Positions 13,978 through 44,372 of a stretch of 64,000 bases of DNA are shown piece after piece. The stretch spans positions 10,752 to 74,751 of the forward strand of contig JAHJHG010000006.1 in assembly GCA_018823885.1 (NCBI GenBank), read 5' to 3'. Positions within the stretch are counted from its first letter, which is position 1. The number at the start of each line of letters is the position of its first letter. The stretch comes from Patescibacteria group bacterium. GTDB taxonomy: Bacteria; Patescibacteriota; Microgenomatia; UBA8517. The notes under the pieces are model-generated. The model was not told where the DNA came from and searched no databases. It saw only the letters and a list, made by a program, of their open reading frames with translations. Position numbers and translations under genes: made by a program.

Positions 13978-14512
13978 TATGAGCTATCTCTAACTCGTAG
14001 GCCATTTTTTCTCCTATAAATTTAATCTTTGCGAGCTCTACCTCATTCAACTCTTCATTGGCTCCACCAATTCCAATTCTTACTTTCCAGAAATCTTTGC
14101 TGTTTAATTTCTTCTCCATTTTCAAAATTGCTTCCGGGGCAGAACCTAAATTTTTACTTATATCAAACTGGCCAAAAGTAAGGTTTTCGTCAGGATAAAT
14201 AATATAAAAGTCTTCGGGAATCACTCTGTAAAACGCGTAGAGACCAAAGGCAACATCATCAAACTTGTCTGTAGGGGTCCTAGGCTTAACCACCATCGTC
14301 AAAGGATTCAGATTGGTAGTCATGAGCATATATTTTGATCTCATCGCCCAGCCGCTTACCATGGCGTTAGGATATAGCTTTCTCACTTTTTCCACGGCAT
14401 AATCAATAATCATATAACCCACATTGCTTCGGGCTTTTGCATACCGTATTCCGGGGTTCCCGTAAGCAATAATCAGTCTTACTTTTTCCTCTATATTCTT
14501 TTCCTCTGTCAT
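13970..14512 (-). CDS. Divergent peptidyl-tRNA hydrolase (Pth)-like paralog with the catalytic His position substituted
   Basis: The 180-aa ORF aligns by eye to the canonical Pth in this same window: N-terminus LIIAYGNPGIRYAKARSNVGYMIIDY against [26 protein letters not shown], and C-terminal motif DFWKVRIGIGG against DFWRVRIGVDN. The His of the conserved R-H-N motif reads Ser here (ARSN). Confidence 0.6.
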   Translation of the reverse strand: MTEEKNIEEKVRLIIAYGNPGIRYAKARSNVGYMIIDYAVEKVRKLYPNAMVSGWAMRSKYMLMTTNLNPLTMVVKPRTPTDKFDDVAFGLYAFYRVIPEDFYIIYPDENLTFGQFDISKNLGSAPEAILKMEKKLNSKDFWKVRIGIGGANEELNEVELAKIKFIGEKMAYELEIAHIT

Positions 14513-14599
14513 CTCTTTTAAGTCCCCATTCTTTCAAAATATGATAGCATTTTTTCCCCTCTTGCTTTTGGAAAATATTTCTTTTACCATCTTACTAGA

Positions 14600-14791
14600 A
14601 TGCCAGCCTTCTTAAAAAACATCGGAGCAGTCGAGCTCATCATCATTGCCCTCATTCTTGTTCTTCTTTTCGGAGGTAAAAAGTTTAAGGAATTAGCTCG
14701 TGGACTTGGAGAGTCAAAACACGAAGCGAAAAAACTTAAAGAAGAAATTATAGGCAAGGGCAAGAAGGATTCTGAAGAAGACGCTTCTTGA
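14600..14791 (+). CDS. tatA: Twin-arginine translocase subunit TatA/E family (copy 1, subtype a)
   Basis: The 63-aa product has a single N-terminal TM helix (GAVELIIIALILVLLFGGKKF) followed by an amphipathic basic helix. This is the classic TatA architecture. Confidence 0.8.
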   Translation: MPAFLKNIGAVELIIIALILVLLFGGKKFKELARGLGESKHEAKKLKEEIIGKGKKDSEEDAS

Positions 14792-14841
14792 CTAGTTGCC
14801 ACAAACAAGTAAGAATTAATAAGTAAGGGAGGTGGTAGATA

Positions 14842-14985
14842 GTGATCAAGAATCTAGGAACAACTGAACTAATAATTATCGCTTTAATCTTAATACTTCT
14901 ATTTGGTGGCAAAAAGATACCTGAGTTTATAAAGGGTGTCGGAGAGGCTGTTAAAGAATTCCGAAAGGCGTCTAAAGAAGACTAA
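14842..14985 (+). CDS. tatA: TatA family protein (copy 2, subtype b), GTG start
   Basis: The 47-aa product reads VIKNLGTTELIIIALILILLFGGKKIPEFIKGVGEAVKEFRKASKED. An AAGGGAGG RBS lies 10 nt upstream. An in-frame stop lies immediately upstream of the GTG, so no ATG start is possible. The product is too short for the ORF track. Confidence 0.65.
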   Translation: MIKNLGTTELIIIALILILLFGGKKIPEFIKGVGEAVKEFRKASKED

Positions 14986-14991
14986 TTTTCT

Positions 14992-15198
14992 ATGCTAAAA
15001 AACTTAGGAACGGTTGAATTTGTGGTTATCGGAGTAATCGCAGTTCTTTTGTTTGGAAGCAAAAGAATAACAGATGTGGCCAAAGGCCTGGGCAAGTCAA
15101 CAAAGGAATTCAAAAAAGCACAAAGTGAATACGAAAAAACAGTTAACAAAGATGTCTCCGAAGAAGAGTCGGAAGACAAAGATAAGGAGGTGACATAG
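14992..15198 (+). CDS. tatA: TatA family protein (copy 3, subtype a)
   Basis: The 68-aa product begins MLKNLGTVEFVVIGVIAVLLFGSKRITDVAKGLGKSTKEFKK. Confidence 0.8.
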   Translation: MLKNLGTVEFVVIGVIAVLLFGSKRITDVAKGLGKSTKEFKKAQSEYEKTVNKDVSEEESEDKDKEVT

Positions 15199-15351
15199 AT
15201 GTTTGGAAAACTTGGAGCATTAGAATTAATTATTATCGCTTTTGTCTTAATCCTACTTTTCGGTGGCAAAAAGATCCCTGAATTAGTTCGCGGAATCGGT
15301 GAGGCCGTTCGTGAATTTAAAAAGGGTGCCAAAGAAGAAAAAAAAGATTAA
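15199..15351 (+). CDS. tatA: TatA family protein (copy 4, subtype b)
   Basis: The 50-aa product reads MFGKLGALELIIIAFVLILLFGGKKIPELVRGIGEAVREFKKGAKEEKKD. A GGAGGTG RBS sits 6 nt upstream. The sequence was found by manual translation. Confidence 0.75.
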   Translation: MFGKLGALELIIIAFVLILLFGGKKIPELVRGIGEAVREFKKGAKEEKKD

Positions 15352-15412
15352 ATTACTCCTCTTGCACATATCCCCCTGTTTAACTTATCATTAGACAAAT
15401 TAGCTTTTATCT

Positions 15413-15577
15413 ATGTTAAATAACGTTGGACCGGCTGAAATGATAATCATTGGTATTGTGGCTCTTTTCCTTTTCGGAAACAAGAAACTGTCCGAATTGG
15501 CTCGAGGCCTCGGGGAGTCAACTAAAGAATTTAAAAAGATTAAAAAAGACATTGGAAAAGAAATTGATACAGACTAA
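15413..15577 (+). CDS. tatA: TatA family protein (copy 5, subtype a)
   Basis: The 54-aa product reads MLNNVGPAEMIIIGIVALFLFGNKKLSELARGLGESTKEFKKIKKDIGKEIDTD. It was found by manual translation. Confidence 0.75.
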   Translation: MLNNVGPAEMIIIGIVALFLFGNKKLSELARGLGESTKEFKKIKKDIGKEIDTD

Positions 15578-15609
15578 TAAATATTTAAGACCGGAAGGGG
15601 GTGTTATAA

Positions 15610-15762
15610 ATGCCTAGTCGATTTGGAGCATTAGAAATTGCCATTATCGCTTTGATTCTTATATTGCTTTTTGGTGGTAAAAAGATCCCTGAATTAATAA
15701 AGGGGGTCGGAAAAGGAATCCGAGAGTATCGCAAAGCGTCAAAAGAAGAGAAAAAGGAATAA
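15610..15762 (+). CDS. tatA: TatA family protein (copy 6, subtype b)
   Basis: The 50-aa product reads MPSRFGALEIAIIALILILLFGGKKIPELIKGVGKGIREYRKASKEEKKE. A GGAAGGGGG RBS lies upstream, and the stop abuts the tatC ATG. Confidence 0.75.
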   Translation: MPSRFGALEIAIIALILILLFGGKKIPELIKGVGKGIREYRKASKEEKKE

Positions 15763-16506
15763 ATGGACGATATATATAATCGCTTCTTCCCGTACCTTAT
15801 GGAGGTTCGAAAAAGGCTGTTTTTTATAGCCTCTATTTTTCTTATTTCATCCGCCCTGGGTTTCATCTATTACGAGAAGATAATCACCACCAGCCTGGGT
15901 ATTTTTAATCTTGAGGGAATAAATATTGTTTTTACCTCTCCTTTTCAATTTTTAGAACTTTCAATTAATTCCGGCCTCCTGGTCGGTTTGATTGCTGTTT
16001 TCCCTCTGATAATAGTTCAGGTCCTGTCATTCTTAAAACCCGCCTTAAAGAAAAGCGAATTTAAGCTGGTTATTTCTCTCTTGCCCTTAAGTATCTTTCT
16101 TTTTATCTTCGGATTTACCTACGGCATCTTTATCATGAGATATGTCTTGGTTATCTTCTATGAGAAGTCCTTAGCGCTTTCCATTGGCAACTTCTTAGAT
16201 GTTAGCAAGTTCCTCTCTCAGATTCTGCTTACCTCGGCTCTAATGGGCCTAGCCTTCCAATTTCCTGTTATCTTGACAGTCCTAATGCGCCTAAGAGTAA
16301 TAACGTATAGCGCCCTTTCAAAACAAAGAATGATCGCTTACTCCTCCTCAATTATCTTTGCCGCCTTTTTGCCACCTACCGACCTGCTCTCTCTTGCCCT
16401 TTTAACAGTCCCTCTTGTAATACTTTTCGAAACTACGCTATTATTAAACAAGGTGGTATTCAAAGCCCCCCTTAAACCAAAAAAGGAGGTGAAACGTAAT
16501 GTTTAA
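15763..16506 (+). CDS. tatC: Twin-arginine translocase subunit TatC
   Basis: The 247-aa product has 6 predicted TM helices. It shows TatC-like conserved stretches (FLKPAL, PPTDLLS), and its ATG sits 1 nt after the stop of the sixth tatA. Confidence 0.85.
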   Translation: MDDIYNRFFPYLMEVRKRLFFIASIFLISSALGFIYYEKIITTSLGIFNLEGINIVFTSPFQFLELSINSGLLVGLIAVFPLIIVQVLSFLKPALKKSEFKLVISLLPLSIFLFIFGFTYGIFIMRYVLVIFYEKSLALSIGNFLDVSKFLSQILLTSALMGLAFQFPVILTVLMRLRVITYSALSKQRMIAYSSSIIFAAFLPPTDLLSLALLTVPLVILFETTLLLNKVVFKAPLKPKKEVKRNV

Positions 16507-16657
16507 AACAATTGGATCAACAGAACTACTAATAATTGCCATAATATTACTTATTCTTTTTGGAGGAAGAAAGCTTCCAGAGCTTGGAAAAGGAATGGGA
16601 GAATCTGTAAAGGAATTTAGAAAATCTTTAAAGAAAGAACCTAAAACCAAAAAGTAA
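16499..16657 (+). CDS. tatA: TatA family protein (copy 7)
   Basis: The 52-aa product reads MFKTIGSTELLIIAIILLILFGGRKLPELGKGMGESVKEFRKSLKKEPKTKK. It overlaps the tatC stop by 8 nt, and an AAAGGAGGTG RBS lies inside the tatC 3' end. Confidence 0.75.
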   Translation: MFKTIGSTELLIIAIILLILFGGRKLPELGKGMGESVKEFRKSLKKEPKTKK

Positions 16658-16662
16658 TTCCT

Positions 16663-17046
16663 TTGCTAACCCCTCTACTCGCCTTAATAGCACCATTCAT
16701 TGTTTGGCCTATTGAGTTAATATTGCCATATCCTCACATCATTGAGGAGTTGGCAAAAGCGGTTCTTGTTTTTACCCTACTGGATCTTCCGGATCGTTTA
16801 ACGAAAATCAAACTTACGATCTTAATCGGAGTACTTTTTGCATTCTCCGAATCAGTCCTCTATCTTTTCAATATTCAAATGGTCGGCATTATGCGGACAT
16901 ATTTTGTCAGACTTCTTGTCACCATTCCACTTCATGTCATCACAACATTAATCATTTTATTACCGGCCCTGAAAAATAAGAAATTAATTATTGTCGGAGT
17001 TTTATTTGCTTCCCTAATCCACTACCTCTTCAATTTATACATCTAA
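16663..17046 (+). CDS. Small integral membrane protein (about 4 TM helices)
   Basis: The 127-aa ORF is hydrophobic throughout and lies directly downstream of the tat array. Confidence 0.4.
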   Translation: MLTPLLALIAPFIVWPIELILPYPHIIEELAKAVLVFTLLDLPDRLTKIKLTILIGVLFAFSESVLYLFNIQMVGIMRTYFVRLLVTIPLHVITTLIILLPALKNKKLIIVGVLFASLIHYLFNLYI

Positions 17047-28689: not shown

Positions 28690-28983
28690 TTATCTATTAA
28701 CCTGCGCCTTCTTTGCAAATTTTTTAGAAAGATACAGAAGTGATCCTGAAGCTAAAAGAAACCCTGTGCCTAAAATAGCAGGATTAATATCACCCAAGTC
28801 AGTATCTACCGGCTCATGAGTTTCTGCCCCGCAAACCACTCCGCCACCATACACAGTGACACAATTTTCCTGCGCCAGAACTGCTTTTGGCAGAGAAAAT
28901 AAAACAGCGGTAATTACTAAAGATAAAAATAGTTTTTTCATACGATTAGGTGGCATTATATGTAATATAGGATGAGATGTCAA
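28690..28983 (-). CDS. Small secreted protein with a C-terminal hydrophobic segment and basic tail (candidate sortase substrate)
   Basis: The 97-aa ORF has a signal peptide (MKKLFLSLVITAVLFSLPKAVLA), a mature segment of about 40 aa with 2 Cys, and the C-terminus ...NPAILGTGFLLASGSLLYLSKKFAKKAQVNR. It lies immediately downstream of the sortase gene. Confidence 0.4.
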   Translation of the reverse strand: MTSHPILHIMPPNRMKKLFLSLVITAVLFSLPKAVLAQENCVTVYGGGVVCGAETHEPVDTDLGDINPAILGTGFLLASGSLLYLSKKFAKKAQVNR

Positions 28984-29001: not shown

Positions 29002-29739
29002 CTAAATCTCTAAAAGTCTGGCATATTTATAGATCCTAATAGGCGAACTTAAGGTCTCACAGGTATATAAAATCAAGTCTGCAGAGTAATCAGATATTTC
29101 TTCAGCTTCCTCCGTCGCATAGACTTCATAAACATACTTTCTTTGACGCCAAATAATTTCTACTATATCCCCTTCTTTAAGTTTAGGTAGATTAAAAAAT
29201 GAATTTTCCCGCCTAAAAATATTATTCCAAGCCAAATACCCAAATCTGTGAGCAGCCATTATCGTCGGTTTATTTCTGGTATATGGAGTGCCGAAATCAG
29301 AAACTCTCCAAATTCCTTTTTTCAAAGCCTTCTCATAATATTCAAGAGTTGATTCTTGAATTTCCGAATTTACACCAATCGAAGAGATCCTGATTGTATT
29401 TTCAAGAGGCAAAGATGCATCAAACCTTGGCTGATAACCAATATTGCTCACGGTGTTCATCAATCCATTAACTTCATTTGCCTCCGTTTTCGCGAATATT
29501 TTGGAAGCAAACGCAACACCCTGAGTCTTTGTTGCATGCCAGATAGATGGAGCGAAAGAAATAAATAACAATATTGTCCCAATTACAGCTGTTGTTTTTG
29601 CCGCCTTAATCAATAATTCAGAAATCTTTAATGAAAAGCTGTTTGTATCAACAGGTTTTTGCCAAACAAAAATATCACCCGCTGTAGAGGCGCCTTTGTA
29701 CGTGTGAATAAAGACAGTATTTTCCATATATAAATTCAA
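29002..29739 (-). CDS. Sortase family transpeptidase
   Basis: The 245-aa ORF has an N-terminal TM anchor, a conserved His (IMAAHRFG), the catalytic Cys in LILYTC (TLxTC-like), and a downstream Arg (IRIYKYARL). Confidence 0.7.
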   Translation of the reverse strand: MNLYMENTVFIHTYKGASTAGDIFVWQKPVDTNSFSLKISELLIKAAKTTAVIGTILLFISFAPSIWHATKTQGVAFASKIFAKTEANEVNGLMNTVSNIGYQPRFDASLPLENTIRISSIGVNSEIQESTLEYYEKALKKGIWRVSDFGTPYTRNKPTIMAAHRFGYLAWNNIFRRENSFFNLPKLKEGDIVEIIWRQRKYVYEVYATEEAEEISDYSADLILYTCETLSSPIRIYKYARLLEI

Positions 29740-29954
29740 AATCTGAAGCCGAAAATAGGTTCAAAAACCTAAATCGGCCCCACAAGGAGCGGGTAGTAAG
29801 CCTGCCCTACGTACCACCCGCCCCCTCTGGAGCCGAACACTAAACGGGTCTTGACAAGACCCTCATTTTAATTTTAGTCTGTTCTTGGATTTATCTTGAT
29901 TCCTGTCCTCAAGACAAACTGCACTTGTCTTGCCCAAGGTAAATCTGAACGAAG

Positions 29955-30028
29955 GGCATCTCTATTTGTGGCAAACCTGCAAGTTCTCACGAATTGGCAG
30001 GGCCAACGGTGGAGATGCTCTTTTTTTG
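29955..30028 (+). terminator. Intrinsic terminator-like hairpin followed by a T7 tract on the plus strand
   Basis: The stem GGGCATCTC...GAGATGCTC is followed by TCTTTTTTT. The stem contains a G.U pair in the plus-strand RNA that would be an A-C mismatch on the minus strand, which argues for plus-strand function. Confidence 0.45.
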
Positions 30029-30202
30029 GTTAAAGAACTGTGAATAGTTTACATCGATATTATTCATTTTGTCAAATCCTATAACTAAATGTACCTACTC
30101 CTTGTATCTCCCCCATAGTAACTACTTACATATAATTAGCTTTGTGATTCGGTAATTCTCTGGGAAAAAAATAAAATGTGGAAAACTTGGGGAAATCTTC
30201 TT

Positions 30203-31513
30203 CTACCTCAATAATTTCTTGATCGCCTGGTTTAAAAACTTTGTGTTTCCTTGTGACATTGTAATATTAAAACCTAACCTTCTTGCTTCTCTAAGTCTTC
30301 TTGCTTCCACCGCTACTTCTCGTATCTCCCCCAAAAGCCCAACCTCTCCAATTGCCATAAGTTTATTGGGAAGTGCTTTATCAAAAAAGGCGGATGCCAA
30401 GGACAAACATATTGCCAGATCGACACCGGTATCTTTAACACGAATTCCACTGGTAATATTAACAAAACAATCGTATTCATATAGAGGCAAGCCACAGCGG
30501 CGAGCCAAAACAGCAATTAATAGCTCCAACCTTTTTGAATCAATCCCTTGTGCAATTCTTCTAGGAAAGGCCAGTTTTGTGGGTACAACAAGGCTTTGAA
30601 TTTCAACAATGATCGGTCGAGTTCCTTGCATTACTGAGGAAACAACACTCCCTGCTACGTTTCTTACCCCTTTTGTTAAGAACATTTTCTCTGGATCGGT
30701 CATACTTATTAAACCTTTGTCTTCCATTGAAAATATTCCCACTTCATCCGTCGGGCCAAAACGATTTTTGACAGCACGAAGAAGTCTCAATGCCGTTGTT
30801 TTATCACCTTCAAACCACAACACCGTATCGACTATATGAGCCAGAACCGCAGGTCCAGCCACCACTCCCTCTTTGGTTACATGTCCTACTAAAAAGAGAG
30901 GTACGTTTTTCCCTTTAGCCGCAGATAATAACCTAAAAGCACATTCCCGAACTTGCCCGACAGAGCCTGCGAGCCCTGAAAGATCTTGTGTTGTCGTTGT
31001 TTGAATCGAGTCTATTATCACGCATGATATTTTTTTAACTTCTTTAATCTGAGCCACAATTGCATCCACATCTGTTTCTTCCATTATCTGGATACTTTTC
31101 TTGGTTACCTTTAATCTGTCTGCCCTTAATTTAAGCTGATGAGCAGATTCCTCGCCTGAGACATATAAAGTATCACCAAGCTTATCTGCCAGTTGAAGTA
31201 AAAGTGTTGATTTCCCAATACCGGGTTCTCCCGCTAAAAGACCTACTTGGCCTGAAACCAATCCCCCTCCCAAAACCCTATCCAGTTCAGATATCTTTGT
31301 AGATGTTCTTGGGATTCTTCTAGAAGGAATTGAAGATAAACTAACAGGTTTTTTGCCGCCTCTTGTTTTTCTTGCCCTACTTTCTTCTCTTTCCTTTTCA
31401 ATAATTGTTTCAACCAAGCTTCCCCAGGTCTCACAATTTGGACATTTACCAGCCCACCCAACCTGGGCATAGCCACACTGTTGACAAACATATTGTGAGT
31501 GAGTTTTCGCCAT
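30203..31513 (-). CDS. radA: DNA repair protein RadA/Sms
   Basis: The 436-aa ORF has an N-terminal C4 zinc finger (CQQCGYAQVGWAGKCPNCETW), a Walker A motif (GEPGIGKSTL), a KNRFG motif, and a Lon-protease-like C-terminal domain. Confidence 0.9.
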   Translation of the reverse strand: MAKTHSQYVCQQCGYAQVGWAGKCPNCETWGSLVETIIEKEREESRARKTRGGKKPVSLSSIPSRRIPRTSTKISELDRVLGGGLVSGQVGLLAGEPGIGKSTLLLQLADKLGDTLYVSGEESAHQLKLRADRLKVTKKSIQIMEETDVDAIVAQIKEVKKISCVIIDSIQTTTTQDLSGLAGSVGQVRECAFRLLSAAKGKNVPLFLVGHVTKEGVVAGPAVLAHIVDTVLWFEGDKTTALRLLRAVKNRFGPTDEVGIFSMEDKGLISMTDPEKMFLTKGVRNVAGSVVSSVMQGTRPIIVEIQSLVVPTKLAFPRRIAQGIDSKRLELLIAVLARRCGLPLYEYDCFVNITSGIRVKDTGVDLAICLSLASAFFDKALPNKLMAIGEVGLLGEIREVAVEARRLREARRLGFNITMSQGNTKFLNQAIKKLLR

Positions 31514-33289: not shown

Positions 33290-36511
<3,222 letters not shown>

Positions 36512-36898: not shown

Positions 36899-36990
36899 TG
36901 GAGCAACCAATAATTTACCATAAATTAGCCTTAAAAACAAACTATTAATATCTGCTACATTTTCAGAAAGCTACCATATATAATAGTTGT

Positions 36991-39210
36991 ATGACGAACT
37001 TAACAACGCTTCTTTTAAAACTTCCACGAAATACTGAAGTTACACCTGAAGCAGCTCAAACATTCCTCTCTGCATTAACACAAATAAATTCAGTTTCCTC
37101 TTTAAGAAAATTATTAGGCACAAAATCACAAGCCTTAGCTTTGGAAATTGTGCTTTTCGATCAACAAATAAGGTTTCAAATAACTTGCGACCGCGACCTG
37201 GTTCCTTTTCTTAAAACACAAATTCAGTCTAACTATCCCCTTGTCCTAATTGAGCAAACACAAGACCCATTAGTAAATAAAAGGCTTGAAATAAAAAAAC
37301 TCTGTCTTGCTAAGGGAAGTTATTACCCAATTGCAACTTTCGAATCATTTCAAGACATTGACCCTCTCTCCTCTGTTCTTTCTGTTTTATCAAAAGGCAA
37401 TCCTGATGAAGTCGGCCTTGTTCAGTTCGCCTTGGAGGCAACAGGTTCTTCTTGGCAAAGAAAAGGGGCTCTTTATGCAGAAAGAGGTACAAAGAATGAA
37501 GATGGTTCTTATTCCCCAAGATCGGACGCAAACATAATAACTGAGAAAATTTCTTACCCAGGTTTCAAGGTCACAATAAGGCTTGCTGCAAACACGAAAC
37601 AAACCCTTAGAGAACTTATATCTAGCTTTGGAGTATTCACAAGAGCTGATGGAAATAGGCTCTCATCGAAGAAAACTTCACAGCTAAAGAAAAAGTCTGC
37701 TCTAGCTTGCCTTTTACAAAGAAAGGTCGTAGATAACCAAATATTAAACATTCAAGAACTGGCAACTATTTGGCATCTTCCAAGCGATAAGATAAAAACC
37801 ACCTCCATTGCTTGGGGAACGTCTGTTCTTTCAGAGCCCCCCGAAAATTTACCTATCGCAATCGATAAGTCAGAAGATGAAAAAAGGGAAATAAACTACT
37901 TTGCCAAAACTCATTTCAAAAACAAAGAAACAATATTTGGTATTGAGACTCCAGACAGAAGACGCCACATATGGACCTTAGGAAAAACAGGTACCGGTAA
38001 ATCCACTCTAATTGCCAACATGGCCATCGATGATCTCAAGAAAGGTCGTGGTTTAGCCGTTATAGATCCCCATGGAGATCTTATTGAAATACTTCTTGAT
38101 TATATTCCGAAGAACAGAATTAACGATGTCATTTACTTCAATCCCGCAGATAGCCAACCTCCAACAATTAATCCTCTTGAGGTTAGAACTCGTGAGGAAG
38201 CAGAACTGGCTGCTTCCGGTCTTCTTTCAATATTCACAAAAATTTGGGCCAATGTCTGGTCCGCACGGATGGAATATATCTTAAGAAACTCATTCCTCAC
38301 TTTAGCGCAAACTCCTAACTCTACTTTGGCGGATGTTTTGAAACTTCTGGCAAATAGAAAATTCAGAGATCAAATCGTAGAAAAAATTGATGACCCAAAT
38401 CTTGTCCACTTCTGGAAAGAAGAATTCGATAAAATGCCGGAAAGACTTCAAAAGGAGGCTATTTCCCCTATTCAGAATAAGGTAGGCCAATTTGTCCTAT
38501 CACCTATGATTCGCGAAATAATCGGTCAACCAAAAGGTTCTTTTAGAATTGACGAGATCATGGATGGCGGAAAAATATTCCTTGCCAATTTATCACAAGG
38601 AAGAATCGGAGAAGATAATGCTAATTTACTTGGCGCCATGTTGATAACGAAAATCCAACTTGCGGCCATGCATCGAGTCGAGATAAGGGAACAGGAAAGA
38701 CGCGATTTCTATCTCTATGTCGATGAGTTCCAGAATTTTGCCACCACATCATTTATAAAAATCCTCTCAGAAGCCAGAAAATACAGACTTAACTTGATGC
38801 TTGCAAACCAATATATTGCTCAAATTCCCGAAGAGGTTCAAAAAGCAATATTAGGAAATATCGGAACAATGATTAGTTTTACCGCCGGTGCGGAAGACGC
38901 GCAAATTCTTCAAAAAGAGTTTTCAGAAGTCTTTACCGAAAACGACCTTGTCAACCTATCACGCTTCCAAGTGGCCATTAAACTTACTATAGATGGGCAA
39001 TCCAACAGACCCTTCTTAGCTCATACTCTGCCTCTTCCTGTCTCAAGAAACCAGAACAGGCCAAAAGTTATTACGGCCTCAAGGGAAAGATGGTCAAAAA
39101 GAGAAAAACCACAACAAGACCTGGAACAAAAGCCATATACACCTAAACAGAAACCATACACACCCAGACATCGACAATACCCACGTAGGAGCAAGTCCCA
39201 TCAAAGATAA
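36991..39210 (+). CDS. VirD4/TraG/TraD-like coupling-protein-type ATPase (FtsK/HerA superfamily) with a basic Pro-rich C-terminal tail
   Basis: The 739-aa ORF has a Walker A motif (LGKTGTGKSTL) and a Walker B motif (FYLYVDEFQNFAT), followed by an ANQY..Q segment typical of TraG/TraD C-terminal domains. It sits inside the 16S-23S spacer on the strand opposite the rRNAs. Confidence 0.6.
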   Translation: MTNLTTLLLKLPRNTEVTPEAAQTFLSALTQINSVSSLRKLLGTKSQALALEIVLFDQQIRFQITCDRDLVPFLKTQIQSNYPLVLIEQTQDPLVNKRLEIKKLCLAKGSYYPIATFESFQDIDPLSSVLSVLSKGNPDEVGLVQFALEATGSSWQRKGALYAERGTKNEDGSYSPRSDANIITEKISYPGFKVTIRLAANTKQTLRELISSFGVFTRADGNRLSSKKTSQLKKKSALACLLQRKVVDNQILNIQELATIWHLPSDKIKTTSIAWGTSVLSEPPENLPIAIDKSEDEKREINYFAKTHFKNKETIFGIETPDRRRHIWTLGKTGTGKSTLIANMAIDDLKKGRGLAVIDPHGDLIEILLDYIPKNRINDVIYFNPADSQPPTINPLEVRTREEAELAASGLLSIFTKIWANVWSARMEYILRNSFLTLAQTPNSTLADVLKLLANRKFRDQIVEKIDDPNLVHFWKEEFDKMPERLQKEAISPIQNKVGQFVLSPMIREIIGQPKGSFRIDEIMDGGKIFLANLSQGRIGEDNANLLGAMLITKIQLAAMHRVEIREQERRDFYLYVDEFQNFATTSFIKILSEARKYRLNLMLANQYIAQIPEEVQKAILGNIGTMISFTAGAEDAQILQKEFSEVFTENDLVNLSRFQVAIKLTIDGQSNRPFLAHTLPLPVSRNQNRPKVITASRERWSKREKPQQDLEQKPYTPKQKPYTPRHRQYPRRSKSHQR

Positions 39211-39255
39211 TTATTAACTTTAATAGTGCTTCCTCTCTTGAATAATCCCATAATC

Positions 39256-39283
39256 TTGCAATATTGCGCATATTTGTTATAAT
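39256..39283 (+). promoter_or_regulatory. Sigma70-like promoter candidate (TTGCAA - 16 nt - TATAAT)
   Basis: TTGCAA is at 39256-39261 and TATAAT at 39278-39283, about 200 nt upstream of the 201-aa secreted-protein gene. Confidence 0.3.
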
Positions 39284-39480
39284 TTTCTCAGTCTTTCCCT
39301 TCTGGCCTATCGCAGGTGAGATGTGGGAAAGATGTAAAGTTCTTTAATAACGGGAGAATATAATCTCCTCGGGACGCAATGGGTACTTAAAACCTTTTTT
39401 GAGTATCTTTTGCGTCTCGGGGGCAAAGGGCAGGAGACGTAAAAATCCAACCATTCTTATCAAAAAGGAGAATAGCAACT

Positions 39481-40086
39481 ATGAAGCGTTGGAAAATTGT
39501 AAGTTTGTTGGCTGTTTTCGCTCTTCTGATCACCGCTGTACCAGTATTTGCCATGGCAGAAAACGGAGCTCCATGGACCGGAGATCCAGATCCATATGCC
39601 TGTAACGTCTATCAGGACTGTTTCTACACAGTAACTGTCTGCATCGATGGTACAACCTACGAAGTAGGTATCTACTACGACCCAGCGACTCAAACCGCTG
39701 CGTACATGGAAGCAGACGCCTTAGGCTGGTCGGATATCGTCCTTACAATCGGCGCCTGTCCATATGTATGCGAAGTGAGACCGCTTTACCGAATGGTCAC
39801 TCTGGTTGATAACGACGCACCTGACTGGTATTTGTATGATGGTCGTTGTTACATTATCATGCACGAAGACGGAACTGTCCCCTCAGTTGATCGCCAGGCC
39901 GAAGTTTGTAGTGTTTGCGAGCATCCTGATTTCATCTATGAAGGAGATGGTCCCGCTCTTTACGACTCCTATGTCGGTGTGGATTGCTATGGCAACTACG
40001 TCTATGCAGATCCTCTGTGGGATCCTGAATGGATCAATCTGGATCCTGACAACATCTGTCACGAAGAATCCTGCATTACCAAATAG
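39481..40086 (+). CDS. Secreted cysteine/aromatic-rich hypothetical protein (short paralog)
   Basis: The 201-aa ORF has a signal peptide (MKRWKIVSLLAVFALLITAVPVFAMA) and 14 Cys. Its C-terminal module (CSVCEHPDFIYEGDG...YDSYVGVDCYGNYVY) resembles the C-terminus of the 695-aa neighbour. The GC content is visibly higher than in flanking DNA. Confidence 0.5.
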   Translation: MKRWKIVSLLAVFALLITAVPVFAMAENGAPWTGDPDPYACNVYQDCFYTVTVCIDGTTYEVGIYYDPATQTAAYMEADALGWSDIVLTIGACPYVCEVRPLYRMVTLVDNDAPDWYLYDGRCYIIMHEDGTVPSVDRQAEVCSVCEHPDFIYEGDGPALYDSYVGVDCYGNYVYADPLWDPEWINLDPDNICHEESCITK

Positions 40087-40208
40087 ATCCGAGGAAGGTG
40101 TCTGTACACTACTGCCCAAAAGGCACCTTCCTGCTCTACCCATTATTCTCCCGTTTTAATTTTTTTTAGATACTTCATGAACCTATAATTTGTAATTTTT
40201 ATCATTTG

Positions 40209-40217
40209 TGCTATAAT
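40209..40217 (+). promoter_or_regulatory. Extended -10 promoter element (TGCTATAAT) upstream of the 695-aa gene
   Basis: The element TGnTATAAT sits in an AT-rich 300-bp intergenic region. Confidence 0.3.
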
Positions 40218-40455
40218 TCTTCAAGAAATTTCCTACTCGCTTATTGTAAATGTAGTATGGAAAAATTCTAATTAAATTTTGTTCTTTAACAACAAGATAA
40301 TACCTTTTTGCGCTTCTTGCGCAAAAAAATGTAAATTGTCAAAAAACTCATAACAAAAGGAGGAAAAGCATGACAAAAGGATAGCCGCGTCTTCTGTCCT
40401 ATGGGGCTACTTCCCCAAATAGACGTAATCGTTTTTCAAAAAAGGAGAAAGTACG

Positions 40456-42543
40456 ATGAAGAAACTTTTTGTTATCGCATTGACACTGTTACTATTGTTA
40501 GTAGCAGCGGTCGCCGTATCAGCGGCCACTCCCCTCCCAGTATGTCCAGAAAGTGGAGGCGGCTGGACCAGGGTTAATAACGGAAATTGGACTGAAGTCA
40601 CGGGCGCGACTAACTACTGCTTTAAGTTCGGGAATGGTGCAGCGCCTGGAGCCGGACCATCATGCGCACCAGAACCTGCGCTCTACGGCTCGAGCTACCC
40701 GGGAGCAACACCCGCAAGTCGGTGTCCCCTAAATCACTGGGCATACTTTGTTCCCCCGGAACCTCAGTGTGGACCGAACGAGTGGTCAACTGAAGAGGGG
40801 TGTATACCCAAAACCGACATCTGTCATGCAACCGGTAGTTGGATTCACCCATTCCAACTGATCTCCCCTTCCAATATCGGCATTCTCATGGGGCATGTTG
40901 GTCCAGGCCATCAAAGTGGTGAGGACATCATCCCGCCGATCCCCTTCTATCTGCCAGCAGGTCAAAATTGGAATACGGTTGGGCAGGCTATCTTCAACAA
41001 CGGATGTGAATTGCCTGAGCCTCATGACTACGAGCTTGTGTTTGACTATCGTAACGAATGCGATGGTAATAATTACTATCGCATCATGCTGACGGATTTT
41101 GGTCAGTATGTCACCACTCTCTATCACAGTGGTTACTTCGTATGGTCTGAGCCGTTCTTGCTCGAAAACAAAACGTTTGGACCGTTTGATCTTGGCGAGT
41201 TTGGGACATTCCCTGCTGTAACGCTGGATGAACCCTTGGATTGCCAAGTCGAACATGAACTTGCGTTCGTGTATACGAATAAGTGCGTCGGTTGGTCCTA
41301 TGGGTATGTACTCGATGGCGTCGAAACAATCATCGCCTCTGGTGAATGGGTTGATCCATATGGTGAGCCGGAAAAGATCTTTGTAAGTTTTGAGGTCTTC
41401 CTACCCGCAGGTGAGATTGCAAATCGCAGTCCCATCTTCGGCCCGTGGTACCTTGTGGAACCAGCCGATTGCCAGATCTTCCGCACGTACAAGGCTCATC
41501 AAGCATATCTTGCGGATAGTTGCGAGGGAATCCATCGAGTGATCAACTTGTACGAAGGCCCAGCCAGTGATCCGTATGATGTATTGGTTGGCACTCTCTA
41601 CAACGAGACGGTTCTGTTCTCGGATCCTTTCAATCTCGAGACCATTCCGGCCGTCACCGTTGATGTCCCGGCAGCGTATGGCCCAGACTACACCTTCGCC
41701 GCTATGGACGAACCATCAACCTGTTACAGCACCTGTGATCTGACCACTCCGGTGGTACAAGATCCTGTTTGGAACCCGTGGTCACCATGGGTATACAATC
41801 CTATCAGCGGTCTTGAGGAAAGTTTCCACACAGGAACACAGACAACCTTATTCATGGACAGTGTCGATGAAGGGTATGTCTGTGGCTCATCGGTTGAAGA
41901 GTTATTCGAATCTCGAACACGGGAAGTGGATTACTCGCTAACCGTCGTTGGTTCCGGAGACTGCTTCAACTGGGAGTACGTCCCTGCTTTCACCAAGGGT
42001 GGTGAAATGACCGTCGTTGGCGATCTGACAGGCGAATGGCTGGACATCTATGGGCCTGAAACCGCTCCAGTACCAACCGTCACTGTTGTATGGCCAAGCG
42101 GCTATGCTCTGACAGTTACACCTGAAGCCGTTGTCAAAGATGTTGGCTGTATTCAATGCCGAATCACGCCTTACTACCCACAAGCGTCATACCATGACGC
42201 AGCTGCTCCTGGCGTTTACTGGCAAGGTCCATTCGGTCTAGGAGCTGGTGTGTGTAGCGTTATTCATCCTGAAGGCCAAGTACCTTCAGCTGAGCGCGTA
42301 ACCACGATCTGCTCCCTCTGCCCCGATGTGTTTGAAGGTGGTTATATCTATCAGGTTAACCACATGTTCTATGACGGCTGGGTCTACAAGGTCCAGTGCT
42401 ACGGTCAAGAACCTCACTACACGTACATGGGGTACAACTGGGACGCATACGTCAGAATTGGCGAATACACCACAGAAGGTGAACGCCTCTCCTGCCGCGT
42501 TCAAGGTTGTGCGGACTGGATTCACGAAAACATGGTGGAATAG
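40456..42543 (+). CDS. Secreted cysteine/aromatic-rich hypothetical protein (long paralog)
   Basis: The 695-aa ORF has a signal peptide (MKKLFVIALTLLLLLVAAVAVSAA), many Cys, Trp, Tyr and Pro residues, and a C-terminal module (CSLCPDVFEGGYIYQVNHMFYDGWVYKVQCYG...) related to the 201-aa protein. The GC content is higher than in flanking genes. Confidence 0.55.
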   Translation: MKKLFVIALTLLLLLVAAVAVSAATPLPVCPESGGGWTRVNNGNWTEVTGATNYCFKFGNGAAPGAGPSCAPEPALYGSSYPGATPASRCPLNHWAYFVPPEPQCGPNEWSTEEGCIPKTDICHATGSWIHPFQLISPSNIGILMGHVGPGHQSGEDIIPPIPFYLPAGQNWNTVGQAIFNNGCELPEPHDYELVFDYRNECDGNNYYRIMLTDFGQYVTTLYHSGYFVWSEPFLLENKTFGPFDLGEFGTFPAVTLDEPLDCQVEHELAFVYTNKCVGWSYGYVLDGVETIIASGEWVDPYGEPEKIFVSFEVFLPAGEIANRSPIFGPWYLVEPADCQIFRTYKAHQAYLADSCEGIHRVINLYEGPASDPYDVLVGTLYNETVLFSDPFNLETIPAVTVDVPAAYGPDYTFAAMDEPSTCYSTCDLTTPVVQDPVWNPWSPWVYNPISGLEESFHTGTQTTLFMDSVDEGYVCGSSVEELFESRTREVDYSLTVVGSGDCFNWEYVPAFTKGGEMTVVGDLTGEWLDIYGPETAPVPTVTVVWPSGYALTVTPEAVVKDVGCIQCRITPYYPQASYHDAAAPGVYWQGPFGLGAGVCSVIHPEGQVPSAERVTTICSLCPDVFEGGYIYQVNHMFYDGWVYKVQCYGQEPHYTYMGYNWDAYVRIGEYTTEGERLSCRVQGCADWIHENMVE

Positions 42544-42567
42544 CTCTGAGATAGCTTAGCCATGTGT

Positions 42568-42609
42568 GAGGTGTCACTCAACTATGTACAACCGAGTGGC
42601 ACCTCATTT
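42568..42609 (+). terminator. Hairpin terminator candidate after the 695-aa gene
   Basis: A 12-bp stem (GAGGTGTCACTC / GAGTGGCACCTC, one G.U pair) is followed by ATTTCC. Confidence 0.35.
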
Positions 42610-42753
42610 CCAAATTACGACAATTACATTCAAAATCAATACAACAAATTATATTTATCGCAAATATGAATATTTGTTTTTTGGTTTTACGGTATTATCT
42701 TGTTTCGCGTCTACTGAATATCAGTACTGAAGAGTCTTCCAAAAGGCAAGACG

Positions 42754-42790
42754 AAACGCAAAAACCCGCTTTAAAAAAGCGGGTTTCTTT
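42754..42790. terminator. Bidirectional rho-independent terminator (AAAAACCCGCTTTAAAAAAGCGGGTTTCTTTGTTTT)
   Basis: A perfect 8-bp GC-rich stem is flanked by an A-tract and a T-tract. It is located about 120 nt beyond the 16S 3' end on the minus strand and about 210 nt beyond the 695-aa gene on the plus strand. Confidence 0.6.
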
Positions 42791-42910
42791 GTTTTAACAA
42801 TCAAAATACGACTAGAAGCGGGTTCGGTTTTTTTACAGTTTAACCGTGACCTAAAAGCTGGGTGTATACCTACCCTCAGATAAATCTGAAAGCAGTCGTG
42901 ATACTCCTTA

Positions 42911-44372
42911 GAAAGGAGGTGATCCATCCGCTCCTTCCAGAACGGATACCTTGTTACGACTTAATTCTTGTCGCTGGTCTCACCTTCCCCCGATTCAATC
43001 GAGGTTCGGGTGCTTCCAACTTCACTAACTTGACGGGCGGTGTGTACAAGACCTGAGAACGTATTCACCGCGGCTTGGCTGATCCGCGATTACTACCAAT
43101 TCCACGTTCATGAGGGCGAATTGCAGCCCTCAATCCCCACTGAGAAGCCGTTTGATGGGATTAGCTCCGTGTTACCACTTGGCAACCCATTGTCGGCTCC
43201 ATTGTAGCATGTGTGTAGCCCTGGACATAAGGGCCATGCTGACTTAACGTCGTCCCCGCCTTCCTCCCGAGAATGACTCGGGCAGTCCCGTATGAATATT
43301 CAACATACGGCGAGGGTTGCGCTCGTTACCCCACTGAAGGGAACACCTCACGACACGAGCTGACGATAGCCATGCAGCACCTGTTCTAGTACCTTCGAAA
43401 GAGTCACCATTTCTGGTGATGTGCAACTAGTATGTCAAGTCCAGGTAAGGTTCTTCGGTTCGTCTCGAATTAAACCACATGCTCCACTGGTTGTGCAGGT
43501 CCCCGTCAATTCCTTTGAGTTTTAGTCTTGCGACCGTACTCCCCAGGCGGCTCGCTTAACGCGTTAGCTTGCGAGACGGAAAAATAAATTCCCCATCCCT
43601 AGCGAGCATCGTTTACGGCTAGGACTACAGCGGTCTCTAATCGCTTTCGCTACCCTAGCTTTCGTTCCTCAGCGTCAAGAAATGCCTAGTTACCCGCCTT
43701 CGCCCTTGGTGTTCTTGTCGATATCAACGGATTTCACCCCTACACCGACAATTCCAGTAACCCCGACATTCTTCAATTCTGGTAGTATTATGCCCCTTCC
43801 CGAGGTTAAGCCCCGGTCTTTGAAACATAACTTACCAAAAAGCCTACGAACTCTTTACGCCCAATAAATCCGGACAACGCTTGCACCCTACGTATTACCG
43901 CAGCTGCTGGCACGTAGTTAGCGGGTGCTTATTCTCCAGTCGGTCTCCCTTCTGGCAAAAGAGGTTTACAACCCTAAGGCCTTCATCCCTCACGCGGCGT
44001 CGCGGCGTCAGACTTTCGTCCATTGCGCACGATTCCCGGTTGCTGCCACCCGTAGGTGTAAGGCCCGTGTCTCAGTGCCTTTCTGGGGGAACACGCTCTC
44101 ACGCCCCCTACCCGTCGTAGCCTTGGTAGGCTATTACCCTACCAACAAGCTGATGGGCCGCAGGCTCCTCCCTCGGCGGGCAGTTACGCCCTTTCATCCT
44201 TGGATCTTATGCGGTATTAACTACTCTTTCGAGTAGGTATTCCACACCAAGGGGTAGATTCCTACGTGTTACTCAGCCGTTCGCGACTTACTATCCGAAG
44301 ATAGCTCGTTCCACTTGCATGCCTAAGGCACGCCGCCAGCGTTCGTCCTGGGCCAGGATCAAACCCTCAAAT
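42911..44372 (-). rRNA. 16S ribosomal RNA
   Basis: The 3' end reads ...GGATCACCTCCTTTC (complement at 42911-42924) and the 5' end reads GAGGGTTTGATCCTGGCCCAGGACGAACGCTGGCGGCGTGCC. The internal conserved blocks (GTGCCAGCAGCTGCGGTAATAC, etc.) are present. Confidence 0.9.

Follow-up and report, generated by a model that had tools for sequence, protein, structure and literature searches.

In the 64,000-nucleotide (nt) stretch of contig JAHJHG010000006.1 from a Patescibacteria group bacterium analysed here (positions 10,752 to 74,751 of the forward strand; hereafter the window), a gap of 463 nt separates radA (30203-31513) from a gene encoding a sortase domain (29002-29739), both on the minus strand. 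This locus probably harbours two conserved small-RNA genes of opposite orientation, and we propose that their products, RNA A and RNA B, form an antisense pair through kissing loops. RNA A would be transcribed on the plus strand from the promoter P(+) to the hairpin H1' with its run of seven U residues (U7), and RNA B would be encoded on the minus strand. Two structures, their strands, three promoter-like sites, a terminator and conservation in Microgenomates-type bacteria of the Candidate Phyla Radiation (CPR) have support in the data. Judged by sequence comparison, A and B are two new, well-supported structured RNA families, seen so far only in Microgenomates-type CPR bacteria. The features of the locus are listed in Table 1.

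The initial annotation had described this interval as rich in guanine and cytosine (GC), free of open reading frames (ORFs) and containing several hairpins, the last of them followed by a T7 run, and had taken it for a single plus-strand RNA. The observation was confirmed, and its interpretation is partly supported. All of the hairpins and the T7 run were located, and the GC content is 0.45-0.47 over 29725-30024 versus 0.30-0.40 on either side. Folding of the 463-nt intergenic region gave z-scores of -5.2 for the plus and -4.6 for the minus strand, and 0/100 shuffled sequences folded as well. The absence of ORFs holds above ~45 amino acids (aa), while shorter mechanical ORFs are present (Table 1); the stretches they cover show insertions and deletions that are not multiples of three among the relatives aligned for RNA A. 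A palindrome listed as a perfect hairpin, GGGTCTTGACAAGACCC (29846-29862), exists, although as a palindrome it is found only in the closest relatives of the window. Its conserved part is TTGACA alone, the -35 box of P(+).

Table 1. Predicted features of the radA-sortase intergenic region (window coordinates).
Feature	Position	Strand	Description
RNA A, predicted small RNA of ~140 nt	29888-30027	+	hairpin H2', linker, terminator hairpin H1' with U7 tail
H2' of RNA A	29888-29945	+	11-base-pair (bp) stem 29888-29898 with 29935-29945; CCUGUCC in the loop, 29902-29908
H1' of RNA A	29951-30027	+	outer stem 29951-29971 with 30003-30023; internal loops UUYGUGG / CCARCG; U7 at 30021-30027
P(+), predicted promoter of RNA A	29851-29880	+	TTGACA 29851-29856, 18-nt spacer, TAGTCT 29875-29880
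RNA B core hairpin, 63 nt, 23 bp	29774-29836	-	P1, 3x3 internal loop, P2, 11-nt loop
P1 of RNA B	29836-29829 with 29781-29774	-	
P2 of RNA B	29825-29811 with 29799-29785	-	15 bp
Loop of RNA B	29810-29800	-	GUAGGGCAGGC, 11 nt, invariant in collected loci
Tail of RNA B	29750-29773	-	U-rich AUUUAGGUUUUUG; small hairpin AGGUU-UUUG-AACCU, then AUUUUC
P(-), predicted sigma-70-type promoter	30046-30084	-	TTATAGG; TTGACA 30075-30070, 18-nt spacer, TAAACT 30051-30046
Two tandem DnaA-box-like 9-mers	30177-30196	-	ATTTCCCCA, 2 nt, TTTTCCACA; directly after the radA stop codon, ~100 nt upstream of P(-)
Mechanical ORF	29675-29785	-	36-45 aa, TTG or GTG start
Mechanical ORF	29874-29990	-	36-45 aa, TTG or GTG start
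Mechanical ORF	29896-30033	+	36-45 aa, TTG or GTG start
Mechanical ORF	29930-30043	+	36-45 aa, TTG or GTG start

Conservation and strand of the two structures

The host of the locus is of the Microgenomates (Woesebacteria-like) type within the CPR/Patescibacteria. Its nearest reference radA loci are labelled Microgenomates, Woesebacteria or Patescibacteria, and the relatives of its RadA protein are named likewise. On the minus strand, a hypothetical gene, rpsA and the genes for 5S, 23S and 16S ribosomal RNA (rRNA) lie upstream of the locus. A radA-based scan of reference genomes gave six loci, five of which possess a homologous element. The element is located downstream of radA in four of these five; in L003 it is inverted as one unit relative to radA and lies upstream of it. 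The locus is absent from L006 (RadA 48% identical), where rdgB follows radA.

Metagenomes were searched with the exact pattern GGTGGNNNGTNGGGCAGGCNNNCTACC, taken from the most conserved part, the core of B, which revealed at least 120 metagenome loci; counts over metagenome loci are among the matches listed for this pattern. Since the pattern fixes the loop of B and five pairs of its stem P2, the invariance of B is partly given by construction. The collected loci contain 104 distinct full-length copies of B. Downstream of radA the locus recurs in 125 fetched loci, all apparently of Woesebacteria-type CPR bacteria, and the succession of rRNA operon, rpsA, radA and then the locus forms a conserved syntenic site in ~100 Woesebacteria-type genomes. 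The search via RadA homologues for B variants with other loops did not reach more distant lineages, as the best 120 matches of both RadA searches were all Woesebacteria-type and at least 61% identical. The B pattern had no match in 2.9 million viral contigs. A phage or mobile origin was rejected on this ground and because B is present in one copy per locus and nowhere else in 685 kilobases (kb) of related DNA.

Two alignments were used. Alignment A2 (RNA A) comprises 31 sequences chosen as typical and 30 pairs, with atypical members carrying large insertions left out, and alignment A3 (RNA B) comprises 99 distinct sequences and 23 pairs. Strand was tested by counting G.U versus A.C cells for each helix, and the pairing controls were obtained by sliding the partners.

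RNA B pairs in 95.7% of the cells of A3, versus 47-55% with slid partners, and 0/500 shuffles reach the observed values. Double changes, affecting both sides, were found at 16 of the 23 pairs. Its helices contain 474 G.U versus 24 A.C cells in the minus sense, and when read in the plus sense only 75.9% of the cells are paired; with the G.U pair fixed by the search pattern excluded, the counts are still 375 versus 24. The fold of the B hairpin has an energy of -48.2 kcal/mol (z-score -6.4) on the minus strand versus -27.6 kcal/mol on the plus strand. R1, the covariance model built for B, gives 89.6 bits on the minus versus 29.8 bits on the plus strand; it detects B once in the window and, in the related 685 kb, once per locus and nowhere else. 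The structure that had been reported as a 20-bp imperfect helix does exist, but it is imperfect on the plus strand only, and the minus strand gives a near-perfect hairpin of 23 bp.

Expanded 'outer' versions of the B hairpin were observed in thirteen loci (L018, L019, L026, L029, L030, L035, L048, L053, L066, L067, L103, L111 and L118). In these versions one or two additional hairpins interrupt the 11-nt loop (GUAGGC...AGCAGGC), and several of the loci carry a complete second B copy nested at the tip of an inserted arm. The outer copies gave no Rfam match and are not detected by R1.

RNA A has the opposite strand preference. It folds at -57.3 kcal/mol (z-score -6.75), versus -40.5 kcal/mol (z-score -2.5) for its reverse complement. 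In A2, 99.4% of the cells of the consensus pairs are paired, versus 38-56% with slid partners, and double changes were found at 5 pairs. The initial annotation had argued for the plus strand from a G.U pair in the terminal stem, and this argument generalises to the right-hand helices, which contain 97 G.U versus 3 A.C cells in the plus sense; the minus reading is only 89.2% paired. With RNAalifold, the helices of H1' and H2' (H1 and H2) form in the plus sense only and the core hairpin of B in the minus sense only. Conservation and compensatory changes in relatives are present, as the single-RNA reading had expected. The hairpins themselves exist and are conserved, yet they are parts of two genes.

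Within RNA A, the stem of H2' covaries (A2 pairs 8-18/58-68), and column 13/63 contains GC in 12, AU in 10 and GU in 9 sequences. An extra inner hairpin, CAAGACAA-ACTGCAC-TTGTCTTG (29910-29932), is present in the H2' loop of this clade only. The 19 pairs of H1' are 99.5% paired and include many U.G cells (columns 86/145, 89/142, 92/140, 93/139 and 95/137). Both internal loops of H1' are conserved, AAAGAGCAU...AUGCUCUUUUU is invariant in all relatives, and the U7 run lies partly within the stem. H1' with U7 is the predicted intrinsic terminator of RNA A: its stem and T7 are invariant, and its G.U pairs exist in the plus sense only. For this right-hand half, the proposal that the stem GGGCATCTC/GAGATGCTC with U7 ends a plus-strand small RNA holds. 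A simple terminator scan missed the terminal stem and T7 because the 'loop' is an inner structure of ~50 nt.

Between the two structures lies P(+), directed toward RNA A. Its spacer is 17-18 nt in 54/54 loci and varies freely in sequence; in 43/54 the -10 box reads TAGTCT without deviation. A conserved hairpin begins 6-8 nt past the -10 box across loci (7-8 nt for H2' in the window), and the strict P(+) motif was found beside B in 82 loci. Read in the minus sense, the motifs AGACTAG and TTGTCAAG hold a distance of 17-18 nt while the spacer between them varies; this fixed distance with a free spacer therefore points to a plus-strand promoter, TTGACA-N17/18-TAGTCT. As predicted sites, both P(+) and P(-) show the features of a sigma-70-type promoter, namely TTGACA, TAnnnT, fixed spacing and a free spacer. 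Among the four perfect-TTGACA promoter matches in the 64-kb window, two are P(+) and P(-).

A single plus-strand small RNA of ~280 nt (29745-30030), ending at the U7 terminator, is in the light of these results scarcely credible. The terminator it relies on is real and conserved, with G.U pairs in the plus sense only, and the plus strand of the entire interval gives a good fold. Nevertheless, each of the measures given above (G.U count, fold energy and covariance score) assigns the left-hand helix to the minus strand; a conserved promoter separates the two halves, with H2' starting directly behind it, and the halves occur in different order and orientation in other loci. The plus-strand RNA would start at ~29888 behind its own promoter, and the left helix would belong to a minus-strand RNA.

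Promoter P(-), gene order and DnaA-box-like sequences

The P(-) region (TTATAGG-A-TTTGACA-N18-TAAACT) adjoins the plus-strand terminator and is oriented through the A gene toward hairpin B, with a predicted start at ~30039. It scores 10/12 in the promoter scan. Across 6 genomes TTTGACA and TAAACT show no or almost no variation, unlike the spacer. A motif of the form TTGACA-N16-19-TAnnnT is present upstream of B in 91/104 loci and upstream of the A gene in 59/59 loci with both. By eye, no B promoter of its own was found between P(+) and the hairpin, a gap of 10-15 nt only. RNA B may thus be the 3' part of a ~280-nt minus-strand transcript from P(-), the only recognisable B promoter in this genome, and the first ~150 nt of this transcript would be exactly antisense to RNA A. 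The initial annotation had held that the interval is not a leader of the sortase operon. This was only half right: a conserved minus-strand promoter (30075-30046) points toward B and the sortase-like gene.

The ATG of the sortase-like gene (29727) is located just past the tail of B, and the U-rich tail probably serves, ahead of this gene, as a weak 3' end or an attenuator. In the relatives L003, L004, L021 and others, the B hairpin is followed by AUUUUUUGU, and in L010, L012, L090 and L112 the ATG of the downstream gene comes directly after the hairpin. The downstream gene is probably co-transcribed with B in many relatives, because its ATG lies only 10-25 nt after hairpin B. In the window, a run of the P(-) transcript on into the sortase-like gene is possible.

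Gene order differs among loci, while the parts are constant. Seven short-form loci (L019, L026, L049, L069, L102, L105 and L114) possess the P(-) promoter directly before B, which here is a ~100-nt hairpin with a basal stem of an A-run and a U-run and with a terminator. An A-like gene is located downstream of B in convergent orientation (L019, L049, L069, L102 and L114).

These data also bear on a reading in which one minus-strand RNA, with H1, H2 and B as its domains, runs from P(-), at 30039, to ~29750. It would be a structured 5' leader for the sortase-like gene or a non-coding RNA of ~290 nt, and the plus-strand gene would be illusory. We consider this reading unlikely. P(-) is conserved and always upstream, B itself is a minus-sense structure, and in many loci the short distance between B and the next ATG leaves no room for another promoter. 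On the other hand, H1 and H2 would carry 97 A.C mismatches in such an RNA, and RNAalifold does not form them in the minus sense. The motifs TTGTCAA and AGACTAG, at a fixed 17-18 nt around a free spacer, bear the signature of a promoter on the opposite strand, not of an RNA structure. Moreover, B in the short form is directly preceded by its promoter and followed by a strong terminator, and a separate promoter serves the next gene. A long minus-strand transcript may well exist; selection on 29888-30027 appears to act on the plus-strand RNA.

Upstream of P(-), the genome possesses two DnaA-box-like 9-mers in tandem. The motif T[TG][AT]TC[CT]ACA was found in the same orientation within 700 nt upstream of B in 70/103 distinct loci, and in the opposite orientation in none. 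The 9-mers (TTATCCACA or TTTTCCACA) recur with a period of 11-12 nt, with up to five copies in L046 and L094, and are located at the same position in L001-L004 and most metagenome loci. They are followed by ~40 nt of T-rich and then A-rich DNA. A role in regulating P(-) through DnaA is conceivable.

Another box, (A/T)(C/T)TATRGG, is present in two minus-strand copies ~35-40 nt apart, ACTATGGG (30112-30119) and TTATAGG (30078-30084), which lie upstream of the -35 box of P(-) and abutting it, respectively. It also occurs in short-form loci, and CTATAG-like boxes were seen at other promoters in related loci. The box may act as an upstream promoter element particular to the lineage, or a factor may bind there.

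Given these sequences, the locus could be seen as an origin or a DnaA-controlled locus in which the DNA-level signals (DnaA boxes, AT-rich stretch, promoters and repeated GG(G/A)CAGG protein sites) matter and the RNAs are by-products. The tandem boxes with AT-rich DNA in one orientation in 70/103 loci are in its favour, as is the fact that GGACAGG and GGGCAGGC are same-strand repeats. This reading is nonetheless highly improbable: strand-specific G.U pairs and compensatory changes show selection on RNA helices, neither GC skew nor gene orientation switches at 30 kb (the only switch is at ~14-16 kb), and the minus strand carries every gene from 17 to 64 kb, the rRNA operon among them. An oriC at this site was likewise rejected, since the boxes and the AT-rich stretch are present but no switch in skew or gene orientation was found at ~30 kb.

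Loop complementarity of RNA A and RNA B

The loop sequence CCUGUCC of RNA A can form 7 bp, including one G.U, with GGGCAGG in the loop of RNA B. In the predicted structures, both complementary sequences are exposed in hairpin loops, as in kissing-loop contacts. The A motif occurs as CCUGUCC, GCCUGCCC, GCCUGCUC or GCCUGUCU; pairing is kept, because these variants differ only by C/U changes opposite G residues of the B loop GGGCAGGC. In the minus sense, the motif G[GA][GA]CAGG was found 25-65 nt from P(+) in 74/82 loci. The best predicted duplex of the B loop with the whole of RNA A falls on the A motif in 38/41 loci, at ~-13.8 kcal/mol.

The A motif is kept both where the A and B genes overlap and where they do not, and a loop-loop contact is favoured for this reason. 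We propose that RNA A acts as an antisense partner of RNA B through the kissing loops CCUGUCC and GGGCAGG. In the gene order of the window, A could additionally pair along the whole leader of the B precursor. Through these contacts A might set the level of B or its processing, as well as read-through to the gene downstream; alternatively, B might serve as a sponge that titrates A. Among the GGGCAGG/GGACAGG sites in the window, taken as candidate messenger RNA targets of the A seed, none is at a start codon.

Several points weigh against this proposal. The duplex has a z-score of only ~-2 against shuffled loops. Nucleotide N59 of B and the nucleotide 3' of the A motif are only weakly associated, with pairing in 50/52 loci where N59 is an A residue and in 5/23 where it is a U residue. 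The search pattern fixed the B loop and five P2 pairs, which makes their invariance partly an ascertainment effect, and the members of A2 were hand-selected as typical, with large-insertion members omitted. On the minus strand the A motif reads GGACAGG, which resembles GGGCAGG of the B loop. The complementarity could be a relic of an inverted duplication, or reflect two same-strand protein sites on DNA, instead of a selected RNA-RNA contact. Finally, promoters, RNA ends and read-through are predicted from the sequence, from which we also infer transcription itself, the loop pairing and the regulatory outcome.

Antisense pairs that meet through kissing loops are known from ColE1 (RNA I / RNA II), R1 (CopA / CopT) and hok/sok, and also from pairs of small RNAs and their sponges. 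Similar to these, the locus contains two structured RNAs side by side on opposite strands, each with a predicted promoter, and a G/C-rich loop sequence of 7-8 nt complementary to the loop of the partner. In the gene order of the window, one RNA would also be fully antisense to the 5' part of the presumed precursor of the other. Unlike ColE1, R1 and hok/sok, the locus is chromosomal, lying neither on a plasmid nor in a toxin locus, and it contains no replication primer or toxin ORF. Some members are, in further contrast to the known pairs, convergent and non-overlapping, with only the loops matching, and the pairing here is a predicted one. As A and B do not overlap in these members, the complementarity is not simply a product of gene overlap.

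Comparison with known RNAs and other features of the window

With Rfam 15 (4227 covariance models) at the gathering threshold, only rRNAs, transfer RNAs (tRNAs) and a group I intron were detected in the whole window. At E<=10, the segment 29500-30300 gave only chance-level matches to microRNA and small nucleolar RNA families, of at most 21 bits. Likewise, no family was found in 16 related loci, in a short-form B or in an outer B. This is in agreement with the initial annotation, which by eye had matched the interval to none of the conserved motifs of tmRNA, RNase P, SRP or 6S RNA. ARAGORN predicted six tRNAs elsewhere in the window, no transfer-messenger RNA (tmRNA), and nothing in 29700-30200.

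A very divergent housekeeping RNA was considered for B, such as the 4.5S RNA of the signal recognition particle (SRP), a hairpin of ~100 nt, or 6S RNA, with A being incidental. Several properties of B would suit such an RNA: one match per locus in 685 kb, a strong predicted promoter, and a short form that is a ~100-nt hairpin RNA with an invariant apical region. The junction UAGG...(A)GCAGGC of the outer version is further reminiscent of the symmetric AGG/AGCA loop in helix 8 of SRP RNA. Still, no match to SRP RNA, 6S RNA, RNase P RNA or tmRNA was obtained at E up to 10 with the window, the short-form B or the outer form, and ARAGORN found no tmRNA. B lacks a GNRA tetraloop and an asymmetric loop, its P2 is continuous and covarying, and it is too short for the 6S rod with its central bubble. 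We therefore regard a housekeeping identity of B as very unlikely. In particular, SRP RNA was rejected, as neither RF00169 nor RF01854 matched at E<=10 and the 11-nt loop sits on a continuous, covarying P2 of 15 bp. B resembles the small SRP RNA (4.5S, RF00169) in being a single-copy hairpin of ~100 nt with predicted promoter and terminator, a conserved apex and a covarying base; unlike it, B has the 11-nt loop GUAGGGCAGGC in place of a GNRA tetraloop, and neither symmetric nor asymmetric internal loops are present close to the tip.

Intrinsic terminators, including bidirectional ones with an upstream A-tract and a downstream U-tract, share features with both RNAs. RNA A ends in a G/C-containing stem with U7, preceded by A7, and a U-run follows the B hairpin in many relatives. 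The differences are that both hairpins far exceed the length required of a terminator (~75 nt with conserved internal loops in A, 23 bp with an invariant 11-nt loop in B) and that the sequences of both are conserved across genera. An rrn-type boxA antitermination signal (GCUCUUUAACAA-like) on the minus-strand transcript was rejected, as it is not conserved in the window. Many relatives possess AUGCUCUUUAAG after H1, the window has AUGCCCUUCGUU, and its own rrn leader has GCACUUUGACAA; the resemblance is a consequence of the RNA A terminator stem. Similarities to the T-box sequence (GGGUGGNACC), to conserved regions of RNase P RNA, to ribozymes such as twister, to the Alu domain of SRP RNA and to 6S RNA were also considered and rejected. 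They were of short extent, wrongly ordered or at odds with the covarying P2.

It is conceivable, though improbable, that B is a core RNA of Microgenomates, acting in a ribonucleoprotein or on the ribosome, that A is its antisense governor, and that the module is tied to DnaA through the boxes upstream of P(-), linking B to replication status. If true, this would be a lineage-specific housekeeping RNA circuit without counterpart in studied bacteria. With regard to such a role, the B loop GGGCAGGC complements a segment of 23S rRNA, CGCCUGCCC, which we take to be universally conserved. The same loop is exactly complementary to GCCUGCCC in the 23S rRNA gene of the window (34613-34620, minus strand), presumably equivalent to ~1829-1836 of E. 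coli 23S rRNA, in the segment CGCCUGCCCGGUGC, also assumed here to be universally conserved. A match of 8 nt is expected about twice per window by chance, and the 23S complement may mean nothing.

CPR bacteria, 'ultra-small' bacteria of groundwater, have minimal genomes with few regulators. Apart from rRNA, tRNA and their introns, scarcely any non-coding RNAs are known from CPR/Patescibacteria, and the literature searched for CPR small RNAs, SRP RNA and DnaA boxes gave nothing relevant and no description of a CPR small RNA. Both RNA families reported here have defined strands, predicted promoters and ends, and one syntenic site. Because the genomes are minimal and regulators few, a conserved RNA pair beside DnaA-like boxes is likely to be important. 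The locus offers a concrete target for metatranscriptomics and for the emerging genetic tools for CPR bacteria. As a practical lesson, a 'structured intergenic region' can consist of two overlapping genes, which counting G.U and A.C cells helix by helix can separate.

Elsewhere in the window, the 23S rRNA gene contains a group I intron (34307-34536; Rfam RF00028, 65.8 bits). A stretch of ~6 kb (36899-42911) between the 16S rRNA gene and the genes for tRNA-Ile, tRNA-Ala and 23S rRNA harbours three ORFs on the plus strand, which are antisense to the rRNA operon. Of these, the first (36991-39210) encodes a TrwB/TraG-type coupling protein of type IV secretion, while Pfam gave no match for the remaining two. 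Only at ~14000-17000 do GC skew and gene orientation switch within the window, and here plus-strand genes on the left (mostly) and minus-strand genes on the right converge. The pattern resembles that of a replication terminus and lies ~15 kb away from the RNA locus. The sortase-like gene is directly followed by a perfect consensus promoter, TTGACA-17-TATAAT (28955-28983, minus strand), which precedes an ORF of 97 aa (28690-28983) without Pfam match.

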